Shown: positions 30,592 through 51,253 of the stretch, in pieces
Layout of the letters: every line of letters starts with the position of its first letter
Position numbering within the stretch: the first letter of the stretch is position 1
Origin: a virus
DNA length: 64,000 nt
Virus record (IMG/VR): IMGVR_UViG_3300009128_000002
Strand: one strand, 5' to 3'
The notes under the pieces: model-generated
Told to the model about the DNA's origin: nothing
The model's database searches: none
Seen by the model: the letters and a program-made list of their open reading frames with translations, nothing else
Translations under genes and position numbers: made by a program

Positions 30592-31191
30592 ATGAAAGAT
30601 ACGGTTGTATTAGATTTAGAAACCCTTGGTAGTTTAAATAATTCTGTAATTTTATCTGTTGGTATGGTCGCTGTAGATTCTGCTGAGGATTATGAGTTTG
30701 CAGATTTAATAAAACACGGTTTTTATGCAAAACTTGATGTTGCTAGTCAAGTAAAAGATGGACGCAAAATATACAAAGATACTTTGGATTGGTGGGAAAA
30801 ACAAGGCCCCGACGCTCAACGAATTCTAAAACCACTTAAAACTGATATGCATTGGAGTAAGTTAATGCCTGCAATGTTTAATTGGTTTAAAAAAGAGGGT
30901 ATCGATTTCGATAAAGCAAAATTCTATTCTAGAGGAAGTCATTTTGACTTTGCTTTATTACACGACTTATTCCGTATTACTGGTGATGCAGGTGCAATGG
31001 AAATACCGTGGAGGTATTGGAATATACACGACTCAAAAACAGTGGTAGAAACACTTTTAGGACATGATGTTGATGTAAATCCTAAAGGGTTTATTCACCA
31101 CGATTGCCTACACGATGCTGCCCGTGAATATCTTAAAATGGAATTAGCAATTTACCAATTTCAACAAACACTTGAGGATAAGAATGATTGA
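30592..31191 (+). CDS. dexA: DEDDh 3'-5' exonuclease, DexA-like
   Basis: LDLETLG, TLDWW, RGSHFD and HDCLHDAA motifs. Confidence 0.8.
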   Translation: MKDTVVLDLETLGSLNNSVILSVGMVAVDSAEDYEFADLIKHGFYAKLDVASQVKDGRKIYKDTLDWWEKQGPDAQRILKPLKTDMHWSKLMPAMFNWFKKEGIDFDKAKFYSRGSHFDFALLHDLFRITGDAGAMEIPWRYWNIHDSKTVVETLLGHDVDVNPKGFIHHDCLHDAAREYLKMELAIYQFQQTLEDKND

Positions 31192-31477
31192 TTTAGATGA
31201 GAATTTTGATGATTATGAAGATGCAAGGTTTTATGATGTTTCTTTATGTTTTGACTGGTTAGATTTAGATAACTGTGTTACCTTTGAAATGGTTTCAGAT
31301 GGCCCTGTTGAAGATAAAATTTCATTAGTGGAATCTATACTTGAGGGTTATGGGGGCATCGCAGAGATGGATGATGGTACTATAATTAATCTTAAAAGGT
31401 TTTTAAATGCATATGTTATTGAAAGAGAAGAAGGTAAAAATACAAAGGTCAAGACAAAATTTAATATAGTACATTAA
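31184..31477 (+). CDS. Hypothetical acidic protein
   Basis: ORF with a GAGG RBS upstream of ATG 31184. Confidence 0.55.
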   Translation: MIDLDENFDDYEDARFYDVSLCFDWLDLDNCVTFEMVSDGPVEDKISLVESILEGYGGIAEMDDGTIINLKRFLNAYVIEREEGKNTKVKTKFNIVH

Positions 31478-31478
31478 T

Positions 31479-32102
31479 ATGAATGATTTGAAATTGAAAG
31501 ACTTTGTTAAGATATACGATAATGTCGTACCACTGAATTTATGTGACACAATAATAAAAGAATTTAAAAATCAATCAGAACACCATATTATGAGTAAAGT
31601 TGGTGACAGTGAAGAATTTAATGATTACCGACAAGCAATAGAAATGAATTGTTCTGTTGTCGCTGATAATGATGATAAATGGAAAATGATTCTGCACTCA
31701 TTAAATAGTATGGTTATGGGGTATTTGCGAAGATACAAATACGATATGAGTTTATTGGGTGTTCCTGATATTTCTATTCCAGACAGTAATATTTTTGAAG
31801 AATGGAGAATGCACCAATACGACAAAGAAAAGCATTTTTATAAAAAACACGTAGATTCACACGATAGTAATTCTTCTAATAGAATGTTGGCATTTTTATT
31901 CTATCCTAACACAGTGGAAGAAGGTGGTGAAACTGCCTTTACAGACCACCTTGAAGGAATAGAATGTAAACCAGTTGCAGGTAGATTATTAATATTTCCT
32001 ACTTGGTTTGGTTATCCACATGAAGCAAAACCTGTTATAGAAGGTACGAAATATATGATTAAAACGTTTGTTCATTATCCTGGCGAATTGGAAAATGTAT
32101 AG
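31479..32102 (+). CDS. 2OG-Fe(II) oxygenase
   Basis: HVD...YxNxxxxGGET.F...G.LLIFP...H...PV..G.KY pattern. Confidence 0.9.
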   Translation: MNDLKLKDFVKIYDNVVPLNLCDTIIKEFKNQSEHHIMSKVGDSEEFNDYRQAIEMNCSVVADNDDKWKMILHSLNSMVMGYLRRYKYDMSLLGVPDISIPDSNIFEEWRMHQYDKEKHFYKKHVDSHDSNSSNRMLAFLFYPNTVEEGGETAFTDHLEGIECKPVAGRLLIFPTWFGYPHEAKPVIEGTKYMIKTFVHYPGELENV

Positions 32103-32421
32103 ATTAACAAGCACTACATTTAAGTGTAGTCAATGCGAAGAAATGTGGACTATGTATTCTGATACAACTCCAAATAGTCCTTGGTGTCCATTTTGTGGAT
32201 ATTCAGAAAACGAATTAAAAGATAAAAGTATTAAAGAAGAAAATAAGAAAGATGAAGTTGAAGAAATAGAAACCACAAAAGAATTCATTGTTAAGAAAGA
32301 GCAACAGAGATGGTCTGAAGATAGAATGACAGAGAAAATGTGCTCAGATGGTGGTTGGTGGAATCCCTTAACGAAGCAGTGTATGGGTGAAGGAAATGGT
32401 TTTATGAAAGAGGAAGAATAA
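32095..32421 (+). CDS. Zn-ribbon hypothetical protein
   Basis: CSQC...CPFCG; ATG 32095 preferred. Confidence 0.55.
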   Translation: MYRLTSTTFKCSQCEEMWTMYSDTTPNSPWCPFCGYSENELKDKSIKEENKKDEVEEIETTKEFIVKKEQQRWSEDRMTEKMCSDGGWWNPLTKQCMGEGNGFMKEEE

Positions 32422-32425
32422 AAAT

Positions 32426-34924
32426 ATGGCATTTTATACATCAGTAAATGTATTAGGAAATAAAGTTTTAAGTAGGGGTATTAATGATGATGGGAGTGAT
32501 TTCATCCGTAGGGTTGATTTTAAACCAACTATGTTTGTGCCAGGAAAGACAGGTGATACAAAATATACCACATTAGAGGGTGAAAAGGTTTACCCAATAA
32601 AACCAGGCACTATTAAAGAAACACGTGACTTTATTAAACAATATAATGATGTTGGTGGGTTTAATGTATATGGTATTGAGCATTTTGATTTACAGTTCAT
32701 TTATGAAAATTGGCAAGGTGATGTTGAATTTGACCCAACATTAGTTAGGGTATATAATATTGATATTGAGGTTGAATCTGATAAAGGTTTCCCACACCCA
32801 GATAAGGCAGAAAGTATTATTAATGCTATTACAGTATATGATAATATTAAAGATACTTATTTCACGTGGGGTTTAGAACCGTGGGAATACGGACACGAAT
32901 TTACTGAAGATGAAATAAAGGTTGTGTACACACAACACGATTGTGAAGAAGATTTACTGAAATCATTCTTAGATTTTTGGGAACTTACACCACCACATAT
33001 TGTGACTGGTTGGAACGTTGAAGGTTTTGATATACCGTATATTATTAATAGATATGCACGTATCTTTGGTGTAGCAGAAACTAAAAGGTTTTCCCCTTTT
33101 GGGTGGATTAAGGAACGTAAATTAACATCAAATTTCGGTAAGGAATATGTTGTATATGACATGTTTGGTGTGCAGGTAGTGGACTATATGAAATTGTATA
33201 AAAAGTTCACATATAAGATGCAGGAGTCATATAAACTAGATTGGATTGGACACGTAGAACTTGGTGAAAAGAAGTTATCATATGAAGAAGAGGGTTCATT
33301 GCTTCAACTTTCAAGGGTTAATTATCAAAAGTTTATTGACTACAATATTAAAGACGTAGAACTTGTTAAACGTTTAGATGAAAAAATGAAATTGATGGAT
33401 CTTTTGTTAACTATGAGTTATGATGCGAAGATTAATTATCAAGATGTGTTTGGTACTGTAAAGCAGTGGGATTCTATTATTCATGATTATTTACGTAGAC
33501 AACATATTGTTGCACCACCAAAACAACAAACATCAAAGAATGAAAAGTATGAAGGTGCATATGTTAAATCGCCAATTTTAGGGAAACATAGTTGGATTGT
33601 ATCTTTCGACTTAAACAGTCTATATCCACACCTTATTATGCAATACAACATTTCACCTGAAACTATTGCTGGGTATAAGTCTGGTGTTAACGTTAATTCA
33701 TTATTAAACCGTTCGGTACAATTAGGTGATTTGAAGGACGAAAACCTGACAGTTGCACCGAACGGTACAATGTATCGTAGGGATAAGAGAGGTTTCTTGC
33801 CCGAGTTAATGGAAAAGATTTACAAGGAACGTAAAGTTTTTAAGGGTAAAATGCTTGACGCACAACAACGTAAAGAAAATGGTGAAGATACTACGAATGA
33901 AATATCTAAGTATAATAACATTCAAATGGCCCGTAAAATTCAATTGAACTCTGCCTATGGTGCAATTGGTAATCAATGGTTTCGTTACTACGATCTACGT
34001 AATGCTGAAGCAATTACAACAGGTGGACAATTATCTATTCGATGGATTGAAAAGAAGTTGAATGAATTTTTAAATAATATTTGTAAAACCACTGATTATG
34101 ATTATGTGGTTGCTATTGATACAGATTCTGTTTATTTGCGTTTGGAAAATGTTGTAAATGGTGCATTTGCAGGTAAAGAACAAATAAAAGAAAAGGTTGT
34201 AGATTTTCTTGATACTATTGCAGAGAAAACTATTGAACCTTTTATTGATAAGTCGTATGAGGAACTTGGTGATTATGTAAATGCATATGAACAAAAAATG
34301 CAAATGGGACGAGAAGCAATTAGTGATAGTGGTATTTGGACTGCTAAGAAACGTTATGCATTAAACGTCTATGATAATGAAGGTGTACGTTATGCAGAAC
34401 CTAAAATGAAAGTAATGGGACTTGAAATTGTTAAATCATCAACGCCTGCAAACGTCCGTGGTAAATTAAAAGAAGCAGTTGGTATTATGTTGACTGGAAG
34501 TGAAAGACAGTTAAAAGATTTAGTGCATAAATATAAAGGTGAATTTAATTCTTTAAGTGTTGAGGATATTTCATTTCCACGTGGTATAAATGAATTTACT
34601 AAATATAAGAATAGAGATAAAAGTGTACCAATTCATGTTAAAGGTGCTAAGTTGTTTAATAAACTTAAAAAACAACACGGTATTAATAATATTGAAGATA
34701 TAACAGATGGTACTAAAATTAAATTCATTTACTTGAAAGTACCAAACCCACATACACAAAATGTTATTTCATTTGTTAGTGGTATCCCGCCAGAATTTGG
34801 TTTAGGAAGGTGGATTGATTATGATACACAATTTTATAAGTCTTTTATAAAACCATTAGAAGGTATCTTAGAACCTATTGGTTGGGATTGGGAAGAAAAG
34901 AGTACATTAGATTCATTTTTTTAG
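32426..34924 (+). CDS. gp43: Family B DNA polymerase gp43
   Basis: DIEV (ExoI), SFDLNSLYP, KIQLNSAYG, IDTDS and KKRY motifs. Confidence 0.98.
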   Translation: MAFYTSVNVLGNKVLSRGINDDGSDFIRRVDFKPTMFVPGKTGDTKYTTLEGEKVYPIKPGTIKETRDFIKQYNDVGGFNVYGIEHFDLQFIYENWQGDVEFDPTLVRVYNIDIEVESDKGFPHPDKAESIINAITVYDNIKDTYFTWGLEPWEYGHEFTEDEIKVVYTQHDCEEDLLKSFLDFWELTPPHIVTGWNVEGFDIPYIINRYARIFGVAETKRFSPFGWIKERKLTSNFGKEYVVYDMFGVQVVDYMKLYKKFTYKMQESYKLDWIGHVELGEKKLSYEEEGSLLQLSRVNYQKFIDYNIKDVELVKRLDEKMKLMDLLLTMSYDAKINYQDVFGTVKQWDSIIHDYLRRQHIVAPPKQQTSKNEKYEGAYVKSPILGKHSWIVSFDLNSLYPHLIMQYNISPETIAGYKSGVNVNSLLNRSVQLGDLKDENLTVAPNGTMYRRDKRGFLPELMEKIYKERKVFKGKMLDAQQRKENGEDTTNEISKYNNIQMARKIQLNSAYGAIGNQWFRYYDLRNAEAITTGGQLSIRWIEKKLNEFLNNICKTTDYDYVVAIDTDSVYLRLENVVNGAFAGKEQIKEKVVDFLDTIAEKTIEPFIDKSYEELGDYVNAYEQKMQMGREAISDSGIWTAKKRYALNVYDNEGVRYAEPKMKVMGLEIVKSSTPANVRGKLKEAVGIMLTGSERQLKDLVHKYKGEFNSLSVEDISFPRGINEFTKYKNRDKSVPIHVKGAKLFNKLKKQHGINNIEDITDGTKIKFIYLKVPNPHTQNVISFVSGIPPEFGLGRWIDYDTQFYKSFIKPLEGILEPIGWDWEEKSTLDSFF

Positions 34925-34933
34925 AGAAATAAT

Positions 34934-35380
34934 ATGCCAAAAATTAACGTAGAAGATATTGCAAACGAAAGTCAAGGGAAAGACTTTTCTGAGTTTGTCG
35001 ATAATTTTCAGACTAATATACAAAATCTAGGCGCTAGAAATAAATACTCTTCTATCGAGGGTGATAAGGAATATGTGTTAGATGAAGATGGTTACATAAT
35101 TGGTGATGTTTGGAGTGAAGCAATTGCATCCGAGGTAATGGATTTAAATGGTTTTGTTGCTACAACTAAACGGTTAGAGGTTTTAGTTGAGGGTAGAGCG
35201 ATATATAAGAAGGCGTCTTTACCTACAGATCATAAAGTTGTTGCAGAAAGTGTTGGTGTAACACCTGCTGATTTTTTGAAAATGTTTCCAAAATATCCTA
35301 TCATTTATTTCACACGTTGGGGTAATATGCGTAAACCTTTTAATCTACAAGAATTGAAAGATAATCCCGTCAAAAGATAG
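34934..35380 (+). CDS. DsrC/TusE-like protein lacking all cysteines
   Basis: YVLDEDGYI..xWSEAIA...R..Y...LxxMFPxxP...RWGNMRKP aligns by eye to DsrC (VDEEGYL..WxxxVA...LYxLFPxGPAKQACRxAGLPKP). Confidence 0.7.
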   Translation: MPKINVEDIANESQGKDFSEFVDNFQTNIQNLGARNKYSSIEGDKEYVLDEDGYIIGDVWSEAIASEVMDLNGFVATTKRLEVLVEGRAIYKKASLPTDHKVVAESVGVTPADFLKMFPKYPIIYFTRWGNMRKPFNLQELKDNPVKR

Positions 35381-35389
35381 TAATCTTTC

Positions 35390-35418
35390 TTGCATTCTGC
35401 ATCTTTTTGTGTTATAAT
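35390..35418 (+). promoter_or_regulatory. Sigma70-type promoter for uvsX
   Basis: TTGCAT-N17-TATAAT with TG. Confidence 0.65.
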
Positions 35419-35457: not shown

Positions 35458-36501
35458 ATGAGTGACTTATTGACACGTCTGAAGAAATCAGGTACAATTA
35501 AATCAACCCAATTATCAAAATCTGCATTATTTAATGCCAAGGATGTTATTCCAACAAGTGTACCAATGATCAACGTAGCGTTGAGTGGTGATGTTAAAGG
35601 TGGTATTACTTCTGGACTAACAGTTCTTGCAGGACCATCTAAACACTTTAAGACTGCATTTGGTCTTGTAATGATGAAAGCATACCTTGATAAGTATCCT
35701 GAAGCAATCGCATTATTCTATGATTCAGAGTTTGGTACACCACAAGGATATTTTGAGTCACTTAATATTGATACTGATAGGGTATTACACGTTCCTATTA
35801 AAAATATTGAAGAGTTGAAGTTTGATATTGTTAACCAATTAGAAGAAATGGATAATAGTGATAACGTTTATATTATGATTGATTCTATTGGTAACCTTGC
35901 ATCTAAGAAAGAAATGGATGATGCGAAAGACCAAAAATCTGTTGCTGATATGACAAGAGCAAAACAGTTGAAATCTTTATTTAGAATGGTTACACCATAT
36001 CTAACGTTAAAGGATATTCCTTTAATTGCAATTAACCACACTTATCAAACACAAGAAATGTTTTCTAAACAAGTTGTATCGGGTGGTACTGGTGTTATGT
36101 ATTCTGCTGATAATGTTTGGATTATTGGACGTAGACAAAATAAAAAGGGAACAGAAATTGAAGGTTATGACTTTATTATTAATGTTGAGAAATCACGTTT
36201 TGTAAAGGAAAAGTCTAAAATTCCTGTATCCGTAACGTGGGAAGGTGGTATTAAAAGGTGGTCTGGTTTACTTGAAGTTGCTGTTGAAGGTGGGTTTGTA
36301 GTTAAACCGTCTAATGGTTGGTACTCTAAAGTTGATATTGAAACTGGTGAAGTCGAAGATAAGAAAGTACGTGTTGTAGAAACTGAAAAAGGTGAATTTT
36401 GGGAAGATATTTTAGAAAATGAAAAGTTCCAAAAATATGTAACAACTAAGTTTGCAATTGGACAAGGAAATTTAATTACTACTGGAGATGAGGATGAGTA
36501 A
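35458..36501 (+). CDS. uvsX: RecA-like recombinase UvsX
   Basis: AGPSKHFKT, YDSEFG, DSIGNLAS and DMTRAK motifs; ATG 35458 follows a GGAG RBS. Confidence 0.96.
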   Translation: MSDLLTRLKKSGTIKSTQLSKSALFNAKDVIPTSVPMINVALSGDVKGGITSGLTVLAGPSKHFKTAFGLVMMKAYLDKYPEAIALFYDSEFGTPQGYFESLNIDTDRVLHVPIKNIEELKFDIVNQLEEMDNSDNVYIMIDSIGNLASKKEMDDAKDQKSVADMTRAKQLKSLFRMVTPYLTLKDIPLIAINHTYQTQEMFSKQVVSGGTGVMYSADNVWIIGRRQNKKGTEIEGYDFIINVEKSRFVKEKSKIPVSVTWEGGIKRWSGLLEVAVEGGFVVKPSNGWYSKVDIETGEVEDKKVRVVETEKGEFWEDILENEKFQKYVTTKFAIGQGNLITTGDEDE

Positions 36502-36860: not shown

Positions 36861-38241
36861 AAATACAATTCTATCCAATTTAATATATAATGAAGACTAT
36901 GCAAGAAAAGTAATTGTTTTTTTAAAGGACGATTACTTTCAAACAAATAGTGATAAAATTGTATTTAATGAGATACAAAGATTTTACGCTAAATATAATG
37001 CAGTACCAACTAAAGAAGCACTTACAATTTCTGTTGATGAACGTAACGATTTATCTTCTAATGCGTATGATGAAACGTCTGCTTTAGTAAATTCACTTTC
37101 TAAAGAAGAAACTAACGAAGATTGGTTGCTTGATGAAACTGAGAAGTTTTGTAAAGATAAAGCCGTTTATAATGCTATTATGGAGTCAATTAATATTATT
37201 GACGACGAAGATAGTAAACAATCTGAAGGGTCTATTCCTGAATTATTATCAAATGCACTTGCAGTTTCTTTTGATACACATATTGGACATGATTTCCTTG
37301 ACAATGCAGAAGAACGATTTGAGTTTTATCAACGTAAAGAGGAACGTATTCCGTTTGATATTGAATATCTAAACAAGATTACTAAAGGTGGTATTCCACG
37401 TAAAACATTGAACATTTTAATGGCGGGAACTGGTGTTGGTAAAACAATCGGTATGTGTCATATGGCGGCATCAAATTTAACACTTGGTAAAAATGTATTA
37501 TACATTACTGCTGAAATGGCAGAGGAACGTATTGCTGAACGTATTGATGCTAACCTAATGGATGTTGAAGTTGATAGTTTGAAGGATTTGTCATTTGAAC
37601 GCTATTCTAAGAAAATTGAGAATATTCAATCAAAAACTAAAGGTAAGTTAATCGTTAAGGAATACCCTACATCAACTGCCCATGCTGGTCATTTCAGACA
37701 TTTATTAAAAGAATTGGCATTGAAAAAGAACTTTGTACCAGACATCATTTATATTGATTATCTAAACATTTGTGCTTCACAAAGATTAAACGGTTCTAAT
37801 AATGTTAATAGTTATACATATGTTAAAGCAATCGCAGAAGAATTAAGAGGACTTGCTGTTGAATTTAACGTTCCTATTTGGTCTGCTACACAGGTTAATA
37901 GAACAGGTTTTAGTTCATCTGATATGGGTCTTGAAGATACATCTGAATCATTTGGTTTACCTGCTACTGCTGACTTATTCCTTGCCTTAATTGCAACTGA
38001 GGAATTACAAGAATTAAACCAAGTAATGGTTAAACAGTTAAAGAATCGTTATGGTGATGAAAATATGAACAAACGATTTGTTATTGGTATCAACAAAGCA
38101 AAAATGAAGTGGTATGATGTAGAACAAGATGCACAAAAAGACATAATGGGTAATGATGTTGAAGATGATGTGAATCAAAGTGTATTTGCTACAAGTAAAG
38201 GAGAAAAGAAGCAAAAAGCATTCAAGGATTTTAAAGTATGA
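36850..38241 (+). CDS. gp41: Replicative helicase gp41
   Basis: AGTGVGKT, KEYPT, IDYLNIC and SESFGLPATAD motifs; TTG start. Confidence 0.96.
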   Translation: MSIENTILSNLIYNEDYARKVIVFLKDDYFQTNSDKIVFNEIQRFYAKYNAVPTKEALTISVDERNDLSSNAYDETSALVNSLSKEETNEDWLLDETEKFCKDKAVYNAIMESINIIDDEDSKQSEGSIPELLSNALAVSFDTHIGHDFLDNAEERFEFYQRKEERIPFDIEYLNKITKGGIPRKTLNILMAGTGVGKTIGMCHMAASNLTLGKNVLYITAEMAEERIAERIDANLMDVEVDSLKDLSFERYSKKIENIQSKTKGKLIVKEYPTSTAHAGHFRHLLKELALKKNFVPDIIYIDYLNICASQRLNGSNNVNSYTYVKAIAEELRGLAVEFNVPIWSATQVNRTGFSSSDMGLEDTSESFGLPATADLFLALIATEELQELNQVMVKQLKNRYGDENMNKRFVIGINKAKMKWYDVEQDAQKDIMGNDVEDDVNQSVFATSKGEKKQKAFKDFKV

Positions 38242-38855
38242 AGTATGGTATAGTATGTGCAATGAAGGAGGAAGTTTGTAAAATAGTAACCTCGTTGCAC
38301 CTTAAAAAAGAAGTTGTTTATGGTGGACAACAAATATGGACAAATAAGAATAAGAACATTATTTTAATACATTCTGATATAGGTAAAGTGTTGTCTGCAC
38401 AGGCAACAACAACACTTATTTACTCATATAATGTAGATGCTGTTATTAATATTGGTATTGCAGGTGGAATAAAAGAGGTTGAACCTGGCTCTGCATTTGT
38501 AATCAATAAAGTAAGACAGTGGGATACTTTTGTACCATTTGAAGAATATCAAGATGTGTTGTATAATAAAGTAGAATGTTCTGTACCAACATACTTGGAT
38601 GTTGAAGTTAAGAGTTTAATAACTGGTGATACATTTGCAACAGAAACACCAAACACAACGTATGATCTTATTGATATGGAAGGTTTCGCAGTTGCGAAAG
38701 TATGTGAAAGTTTTAATATTAACACAATTATAATCAAAGGGGTTAGTGATAATGTTGATGGGGTCAGTGTCGATGTTATGTTTGATAACTTGAATATTGC
38801 AATGGATAACTCTATTGACATTTTGAAGGATATACTTAAACCGAATTTATTATAA
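38238..38855 (+). CDS. mtnN: MTA/SAH nucleosidase-like protein
   Basis: GIVCAMKEE, IGKV, INIGIAGG, TGDTF, DMEG and KGVSD motifs. Confidence 0.8.
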   Translation: MKYGIVCAMKEEVCKIVTSLHLKKEVVYGGQQIWTNKNKNIILIHSDIGKVLSAQATTTLIYSYNVDAVINIGIAGGIKEVEPGSAFVINKVRQWDTFVPFEEYQDVLYNKVECSVPTYLDVEVKSLITGDTFATETPNTTYDLIDMEGFAVAKVCESFNINTIIIKGVSDNVDGVSVDVMFDNLNIAMDNSIDILKDILKPNLL

Positions 38856-50613: not shown

Positions 50614-50832
50614 ATGCCGTTTTTTGATTTTAAGTGTGAAGAATGTGGTGAAATAATTGAAAGAAACGTGAAGTGGTCAAAAACAATGGCAGAAGATTTA
50701 GAGCCTTGTAAATGTGGTGCTAAGAAATGGAAAAGACAGTTTAGTGTATCACATAGTAAATTCGCAGAACCAGATAGGGATATTGCAGTAAGACAGACAA
50801 ATGAAATGATGAGTGGAAAAGGATGGTTATAG
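50614..50832 (+). CDS. FmdB-family zinc-ribbon protein
   Basis: MPFFDFKCEECG...CKCG. Confidence 0.7.
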   Translation: MPFFDFKCEECGEIIERNVKWSKTMAEDLEPCKCGAKKWKRQFSVSHSKFAEPDRDIAVRQTNEMMSGKGWL

Positions 50833-50833
50833 T

Positions 50834-51253
50834 ATGAGTGTTTTTAATAAAGTAATGGATGCTTTTTATAAGCAATCTGCAAAAAGAATTAAACATAAGG
50901 AAGTAAAAAGAGAACGTTATAGACAAGTATATGGTAATATTGAAGGAAGTAAAAAAACTTGTGATGAATTAAAAGAAATATTTGATTCTGGTGGTATTAT
51001 TATTGACCTAAGAAACCCAGTTGATTTTATATCTGGTGGTATGGTACACAATGCAATTAATGTGCCTGCAAAAGATATTGATAACTGGTTAAATAGTAAT
51101 AATAACCTTACTAAAAATACACCTATTATGTTATATTCAACTAATGGTATTACTGCAATAGAGGTACTTGAGAAATTAAAAAGAACACCTTATAATTTCA
51201 ATAATGTTCATAATATAGGGGCTGCCAGATGGTATCCTAACTGTTCTTGTTAA
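50834..51253 (+). CDS. Rhodanese-like domain protein (catalytic Cys replaced by Ser)
   Basis: IIIDLRNPVDF..G...AINVP and PIMLYSTNG motifs; C-terminal CSC. Confidence 0.75.
   Translation: MSVFNKVMDAFYKQSAKRIKHKEVKRERYRQVYGNIEGSKKTCDELKEIFDSGGIIIDLRNPVDFISGGMVHNAINVPAKDIDNWLNSNNNLTKNTPIMLYSTNGITAIEVLEKLKRTPYNFNNVHNIGAARWYPNCSC

Follow-up and report, generated by a model that had tools for sequence, protein, structure and literature searches.

A cysteine-free DsrC/TusE homologue encoded between gp43 and uvsX in a widespread phage clade

Introduction

Viral genes resembling dsrC and tusE have been described from SUP05 viruses and from T4-like viral contigs of the ocean (Anantharaman 2014; Roux 2014, 2016; Kieft 2021). 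Specifically, Kieft et al. 2021 recorded 141 viral DsrC proteins, with 23 containing both cysteine motifs, 112 the second only, one the first only, and five neither. The role of the cysteine-deficient forms was left open in that study, and a modified function was suggested for such forms by Roux et al. The DiSCo paper, citing Venceslau et al. 2014, gives both the family name DsrC/TusE/RspA and the motif AGLPKPTG-C.

The window analysed here is the complete stretch of 64,000 nucleotides from the IMG/VR virus record IMGVR_UViG_3300009128_000002. It encodes a 148-aa protein that is a viral variant of this known superfamily, and cysteine-less DsrC paralogues themselves are not new in kind. The family to which the protein belongs, its fixed place behind gp43, its N-terminal extension, and its C-terminal arm are not described in Anantharaman 2014, Roux 2014 and 2016, or Kieft 2021, and the IMG sample numbers of its loci are absent from the supplements of Kieft et al. 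Furthermore, the Pfam threshold of 40 bits applied by Roux 2016 would miss the family, because its members score 20 to 27 bits.

The gene and its surroundings

The gene is located in a replication and recombination module, and the features of the locus are as follows.

32426 to 34924, plus strand: upstream gene gp43, a family-B DNA polymerase of 832 aa (Pfam DNA_pol_B and DNA_pol_B_exo1)
34925 to 34933, plus strand: spacer of 9 nt in the sequence between the gp43 stop codon (TAG) and the ATG of the DsrC-like gene
34934 to 35380, plus strand: cysteine-less DsrC/TusE-fold ORF, 148 aa and stop, ATG to TAG
34934 to 35065, plus strand: N-terminal extension, aa 1 to 44, with predicted helices at residues 6 to 12 and 18 to 44; absent in canonical DsrC/TusE
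35066 to 35272, plus strand: DsrC-like core, aa 45 to 113, with a predicted beta-hairpin LDEDGYIxGxxW and, after it, a helical bundle that contains an HTH-like substructure
35273 to 35377, plus strand: remodelled C-terminal arm, aa 114 to 148, FLKMFPKYPIIYFTRWGNMRKPFNLQELKDNPVKR, from alignments with TusE
35312 to 35314, plus strand: position of CysB, here T127, from alignments with TusE
35345 to 35347, plus strand: position of CysA, here L138, from alignments with TusE
35390 to 35418, plus strand: sigma70-type promoter-like site for uvsX (TTGCAT, 17 nt, TGT-TATAAT)
35458 to 36501, plus strand: downstream gene uvsX, a recombinase (Pfam T4_UVSX_C and RecA)

An initial annotation of this DNA had reported a reading frame of 148 codons without cysteine on the plus strand at 34934 to 35380, placed it between gp43 and uvsX, and given it an extension of roughly 40 aa. 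The reading frame is as reported, both neighbours are identified by Pfam, and the core begins at about residue 44 to 45 (Pfam match from 44 to 135, structural match from 41 to 45). The gp43 of the window shares approximately 50% identity with cyanomyophage gp43. The start of uvsX was set at the ATG at 35458 from the alignment with relatives, and a gene for a DnaB-type gp41 helicase, identified by Pfam, follows further downstream.

The spacer of 9 nt is too short for a promoter, so we take the DsrC-like gene to close the gp43 transcription unit. In relatives, the distance from the gp43 stop to the ATG is 9 to 25 nt, with Shine-Dalgarno-like sites of the GGAG/GAGA type. Directly 3' of the gene, most aligned relatives contain TTGAC(A/T) or TTTACT, a gap of 16 to 19 nt, and TATAAT, mostly with an extended TGn element, and the corresponding site in the window is TTGCAT-17-TGTTATAAT. 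This promoter call is based on the alignment of relatives and not on a generic promoter scan, which returned 38 sites against 32 expected and is uninformative in AT-rich DNA. The uvsX promoter is not listed by the generic scan, because its -35 element in the window matches in only three of six positions. From the short spacer behind gp43 and the promoter-like site downstream, we infer that the DsrC-like gene comes last in the gp43 unit and that its expression is early.

Several further observations concern the immediate surroundings. The reading frames of gp43 and the DsrC-like gene are the same (window 34922 to 34936), with TAG and three codons between them. This relation is not kept in relatives, for example at locus L002, and thus is probably a coincidence and not programmed read-through. 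One subgroup of loci (L028, L029, and L032 to L035) carries an insert of 135 nt from the gp43 stop to the DsrC-like start, with a small basic ORF that begins MGKRNIAG. Cargo-like genes are found amid the replication module at window positions 30592 to 32421, namely those for an Rv2179c-like 3'-5' exoribonuclease, a 2OG-Fe(II) oxygenase, and a zinc-ribbon-like ORF, the latter with a weak match to DUF5817. A PNP_UDP_1 (Pfs/MTA-nucleosidase-like) gene follows gp41 at 38238 to 38855.

Homology and fold

The Pfam family DsrC (PF04358) matches residues 44 to 135 of the window protein over profile positions 4 to 103 of 107, with an E value of 6.5e-4 and a score of 20.5 bits, which is below the curated cut-off of 24.9 bits. 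A relative of 72% identity exceeds this cut-off with 27.2 bits, and many relatives carry a precomputed PF04358 match. Only weak matches come from NCBIfam TIGR03342 and from one PHROG without an assigned function. When a profile of 30 family members (A1) was searched against the sequences of the PDB, DsrC/TusE chains alone were placed at the top, albeit weakly (E 0.045 to 0.35). Alignment of A1 by hhalign gave E values of 1.9e-5 against E. coli TusE and 2.6e-12 against a profile of 17 single-Cys TusE-like sequences (A3), the latter with a probability of 97.6% over 105 columns. Among 1.84 billion representative proteins, A1 reached canonical TusE-like proteins ending GLPKPTGCV at E values of 2 to 4e-4. 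A Pfam match to RelB (E 0.08) was dismissed as noise, and a PADLOC match (E 0.02) is likewise at noise level.

The AlphaFold2 model computed from A1 has a mean pLDDT of 79.7, with values of 83 to 91 across most of residues 51 to 140. Comparison of this model with the PDB by Foldseek returned DsrC-family structures as all of the best eight matches, with predicted similarities of TM 0.63 to 0.73 (target-normalised) and a RMSD of 2.5 to 3.2 Å. An independent structural scan against representative folds by VIA-align gave Z scores of 12.7 for 7syb and 10.8 for 2v4j chain C over 94 to 98 residues, followed by the TetR-type HTH as the next fold with 5.1. In the model, residues 76 to 131 superpose on TetR-type DNA-binding domains (Z 4 to 5, RMSD 2 to 3.6 Å). 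Resemblance to TetR may be a general trait of the DsrC fold, and therefore says little about function. Judged from profiles and predicted structure, the window protein is a true but distant homologue of DsrC and TusE. The initial annotation had staked its proposal on a DsrC profile or structure match, and Pfam, hhalign, Foldseek, and VIA-align all provide one.

Loss of the carrier cysteines and remodelling of the arm

Alignments with E. coli TusE and with single-Cys TusE-like proteins also bear out the proposed register, in which CysB falls at T127 and CysA at L138, within FTRWGNMRKPFNLQ. The CysB-x10-CysA motif is thus absent from the window protein, as it is from every relative examined, and the window protein does not contain the CxxxGxPxPxxC motif that Kieft et al. 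used for validation. The frequency of cysteine in this phage is 0.73%, which corresponds to a probability of approximately 0.34 for no cysteine in 148 aa, and 8 of 27 phage ORFs of 100 to 200 aa contain none. Since cysteine is commonly absent in this phage, its absence from 148 aa is unremarkable when taken alone. What is beyond chance is the loss at both homologous positions in every relative examined. Among 50 full-length relatives, 46 are without cysteine, and the remaining four have a single one at position 65, outside the arm. With Thr and Leu at the two sites and a longer tail, the protein encoded in the window cannot, to judge from its sequence, be a sulfur carrier of the DsrC/TusE type. 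The earlier view that this is not a flux-boosting sulfur gene stands, as both carrier cysteines are missing in every relative examined.

Only G130, K134, and P135 are retained from the canonical arm A-G-L-P-K-P-T-G-C. The arm reads FPKYPIIYFTRWGN(L/M)RKP, is invariant or nearly so in the family, and includes five aromatic residues. The position of CysA is followed by ten residues with a conserved L..L.DNP. Residues 114 to 136 are the most conserved stretch of the protein, with an entropy by position of 0.32 compared with 1.18 in the core and 1.33 in the extension. This basic and aromatic stretch has a local pI of 10.6 amid an acidic remainder, the pI of the whole protein being 5.1 and the family median 5.0. 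In the extension, residues F21, Q26, I29, N31, L32, and R35 are conserved.

Distribution, selection, and gene order

Public metagenomes (JGI, ENA, Logan, Tara, and NCBI) yielded 111 clusters of the family at 90% identity, and nearly all members are 147 to 150 aa long. In total, 56 IMG/VR loci and 50 metagenome loci were retrieved, and the contigs of relatives extend to approximately 150 kb, with one of 306 kb. Pairwise dN/dS has a median of 0.20 over the 203 pairs in which dS was not saturated. The gene is real and under purifying selection and, as it is retained throughout the clade, functional. No relative was found by tblastn in 50,697 records of cultured or deposited phages, among the BFVD viral structures, or in a pattern scan of one genome each from 185,579 prokaryote species. 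Fused forms, including any fusion to a replication protein, were not found except for one chimeric record of 269 aa. This record, P0113, stems from an ENA contig of 1.1 kb; its residues 1 to 66 are identical to the window protein and the remainder is unrelated, so that it is probably an assembly chimera.

The gene order is identical in 56 of 56 IMG/VR loci, namely 2OG-Fe(II) oxygenase, a small zinc-ribbon-like ORF, gp43, the DsrC-like gene, uvsX, an ORF of 60 to 70 aa, and gp41. This order is kept while gp43 drops to 63% identity. When loci were sampled by their UvsX, the DsrC-like gene was present in all 38 loci with a UvsX of at least 73% identity and upstream sequence present, and the family HMM found no match in any of 30 sister loci (UvsX 63 to 67%). 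These two counts mark the gene as a clade-defining core gene of an uncultured group of T4-like ocean phages and not as patchy cargo. Metabolic cargo genes usually spread patchily, unlike the universal presence seen here. In P-SSM2, the slot between gp43 and uvsX holds two unrelated ORFs, which indicates that the slot varies among T4-like phages. No dsr genes were seen in the window ORFs checked or in the 12-kb flanks of the 56 loci.

Some observations elsewhere in the window and on the contigs of relatives touch on sulfur-relay folds and on the host. A rhodanese-like ORF (Pfam Rhodanese, E 2e-9) is encoded on the plus strand of the window at 50813 to 51253, with an active-site loop LYSTNG in which Ser replaces Cys. 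The protein ends NCSC and is a second sulfur-relay fold without its canonical cysteine in the same phage. Approximately 45 kb downstream of the Cys-less gene of one relative (contig G004), a permuted two-piece tmRNA is located at L149 17265 to 17678 (Rfam RF04321, 78.5 bits). Its tag is given by ARAGORN as DNVNYALAA, and it may offer a clue to the host, as marine myophages that infect SAR11- and OM43-type hosts have been described as commonly carrying such tmRNAs. A similar tmRNA lies approximately 4 kb upstream of a TusE-like gene in L091.

Place within the superfamily

In five sulfur-oxidising Gammaproteobacteria (genomes G011 to G015; loci L304 to L328), each genome encodes four to seven DsrC-family paralogues. 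These comprise true DsrC with CysB and CysA, short single-Cys TusE-like proteins, and proteins that lack CysA or both cysteines. The last kind form at least four distinct groups with longer tails, examples of which end AGLPATNRKGGY, AGIRRTKGEH, and ACKIAGMRKPLKLLLDL. The existence of several bacterial groups without cysteines shows that cysteine loss is recurrent in this fold. When the phage-family HMM was applied to 28 paralogues of the five genomes, the short TusE-like proteins scored 28 to 31 bits, true DsrC mostly 15 to 21 (one 6), and most others lower. The short TusE-like form is widespread among sulfur oxidisers, yielding at least 582 genome matches.

The only partner of the phage family in a maximum-likelihood tree is the metagenomic protein P0118 (support 100/99). 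The family stands there on a long stem and is nested in no bacterial Cys-less group of the five-genome sample. On this tree, the cysteine loss reads as independent and as the product of a fast-evolving viral lineage. P0118 is an orphan of 96 aa from a 1-kb contig, named TusE by JGI, and has no N-terminal extension. Its CysB is retained (LLCKWAGLDKP) and its CysA site is occupied by Leu (KPKNL), and it may be an evolutionary intermediate. No relative of P0118 was found on IMG/VR contigs. Two other proteins, P0116 (541 aa) and P0125 (209 aa), consist of five and two tandem DsrC-like domains, respectively, mostly without the terminal Cys motif.

Single-Cys TusE-like genes also occur on viral contigs (L097 3968 to 4612; L096; L085; L064; L091), within a few hundred bases of tRNAs, namely Gly-UCC, Met-CAU, and Leu-UAA. 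This location fits a role in tRNA modification. A TusE-like query against the contigs of relatives (G001 to G004, with G004 ending 1.7 kb past the tmRNA) retrieved the Cys-less gene alone. The TusE-bearing viral contigs G005 to G010 are not collinear with the window, and in G009 gp32 and an acidic ORF precede uvsX in place of the DsrC-like gene.

Possible functions

The phage lineage has kept the DsrC fold, dropped both sulfur-carrying cysteines, gained an N-terminal helix, and rewritten and lengthened the arm. The resulting sulfur-inert protein would be made early, as the final cistron of the gp43 unit, and would act as a non-catalytic binder whose contact surface is the invariant basic and aromatic arm. 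The HTH-like face and the added helix possibly join the arm in this contact. The likeliest target would be a component of the early replication and recombination machinery or a nucleic acid, and not the active-site pockets of canonical arms. We infer both the binding mode of action and the target. The protein is tentatively regarded as a neofunctionalised, non-catalytic binding factor acting in the early replication and recombination programme or on nucleic acid; this is the reading we favour, with reservations, over a faithful decoy of the sulfur relay. The neighbourhood contributes little to the choice of target, because T4-like marine phages scatter unrelated cargo through this module, for example the 2OG oxygenase, exoribonuclease-like, and nucleosidase-like genes of the window or purM and mazG in P-SSM2. 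The acidic character of the whole protein, which speaks against general DNA binding, and the lack of any fusion to a replication protein among the records searched also count against this reading. The proposal that the sulfur-carrier fold was recruited as a dedicated T4-type replication and recombination accessory, produced together with the DNA polymerase and with the arm binding gp43, UvsX, gp32, or ssDNA, is unlikely. If true, it would add a new class of accessory protein to the replisome or recombination machinery, akin in spirit to thioredoxin with T7 polymerase.

The protein might instead be a decoy or dominant-negative form of TusE/DsrC, an idea already raised in the initial annotation. 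It would dock to host TusBCD, DsrEFH, MnmA, or DsrAB, be unable to accept sulfur, and so block or retune tRNA 2-thiolation or sulfur oxidation. Such a role would be in line with the retained fold, with the strong constraint on the arm, which is the docking element of DsrC and TusE, and with the single-Cys TusE-like proteins being the best-scoring canonical relatives; the window also encodes the rhodanese-like protein whose catalytic Cys is replaced by Ser. However, a faithful mimic should keep GLPKPTG and alter the cysteine only, whereas here G130, K134, and P135 alone survive, five aromatic residues have been introduced, and ten residues are appended after the CysA position. A docking arm that is both rewritten and lengthened makes a faithful decoy less likely. 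Furthermore, a block of s2U34 would be expected to harm an AT-rich phage (33% GC) that relies on the decoding of AAA, GAA, and CAA, and the permuted tmRNA on a relative's contig points tentatively to a host of the SAR11 or OM43 type, in which Dsr or Tus may be missing. Taken together, this role appears doubtful, albeit with a better claim than the remaining alternatives. A sequence-specific DNA- or RNA-binding role for an HTH-like DsrC-fold protein is suggested by the modelled superposition of residues 76 to 131 on TetR-type domains, by the family name DsrC/TusE/RspA in the literature, by the apparently early expression of the gene, and, as a lead only, by a LexA DNA-binding domain in some DsrC clusters (21% of one Atlas cluster). 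The likeness to TetR, however, may be fold-wide, the putative recognition helix has a single Lys, and the acidic nature of the protein (pI 5.1) does not favour general DNA binding, so that this role is improbable.

Inactive paralogues recur as subunits of sulfur-relay complexes, and TusB and TusC serve as scaffold-type inactive paralogues for TusD. By analogy with this theme, the phage protein could be the structural partner, or inactive scaffold paralogue, of a Cys-bearing phage or host TusE/DsrC, and single-Cys TusE-like genes do adjoin tRNA genes on viral contigs. The neighbourhoods of the two genes differ, however, and their sequences are only about 20% identical, which leaves a partnership of this kind with little probability. 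The loss of the catalytic residues would also be expected if a captured tusE/dsrC gene were decaying or no longer had a function. Such decay is at odds with a median dN/dS of 0.20, an invariant arm of 23 residues, a length of 147 to 150 aa in most relatives, and the presence of the gene in every clade member down to a gp43 identity of 63%. As an explanation it is already contradicted by the sequence conservation and appears extremely improbable.

Annotation and significance

Several members of the family are labelled by JGI as 'sulfur relay (sulfurtransferase) DsrC/TusE family protein', which overstates what the sequence supports. Studies of viral sulfur-cycling genes that draw on these names can include the family in their counts, although its members cannot carry sulfur in the manner of DsrC/TusE. 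The clade is widespread, with more than 100 clusters at 90% identity and occurrence in Tara and many JGI marine samples, and the annotation error could bias estimates of how viruses influence sulfur cycling. The family also presents a clean case in which a catalytic carrier fold has become a fixed core gene, strongly conserved within one phage lineage. The protein's small size, soluble appearance, and clearly conserved surface make it well suited to testing what a 'dead' DsrC does.

Comparison with known systems

The phage protein has the same fold as TusE (E. coli YccK) and as the short TusE-like proteins with a single Cys that end GPMKPITKYGGLPKPTGCV. This short subfamily, which occurs in Gammaproteobacteria that oxidise sulfur as well as on viral contigs, scored best of the canonical groups. 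Shared features include the N-terminal hairpin D-x-D/E-G-Y-L/I ... W, a conserved Arg in the helix A-R-E-Y-Y, the turn F/W-P-x-x-P, and K-P in the arm. E. coli TusE carries a 7-residue insertion that is missing from the phage protein and from the short subfamily alike. In contrast to the TusE-like proteins, the phage protein, at approximately 20% identity, has neither CysA nor the persulfide relay, and has an extension of 44 aa and an arm lengthened by ten residues. CysA is the penultimate residue in the canonical TusE-like proteins aligned, whereas the phage protein has Leu followed by ten residues. The genomic context differs as well, as the phage gene adjoins gp43 and uvsX and the single-Cys TusE-like genes adjoin tRNA genes.

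DsrC proper, represented by A. vinosum 1YX3, D. vulgaris 2V4J chain C, and A. fulgidus 1SAU, matches in fold. Unlike these proteins, the phage protein lacks CysB, CysA, and the typical DsrC insertion, and no dsrAB context was seen in the window ORFs checked or in the 12-kb flanks of the 56 loci. The bacterial Cys-less or CysB-only paralogues (RspA-like) belong to the same superfamily and combine the loss of CysA, with or without that of CysB, with longer tails. However, neither the N-terminal extension nor the YFTRWG arm of the phage family occurs in any of the bacterial Cys-less groups. RspA-type proteins are reportedly DsrC-like proteins without both conserved cysteines. The phage protein likewise lacks both, and the RspA type is in this sense a negative definition only.

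Thioredoxin is the host processivity subunit of T7 DNA polymerase and keeps its cysteines. By analogy, the phage protein could represent another case in which the fold of a thiol protein serves as a non-redox partner in replication.
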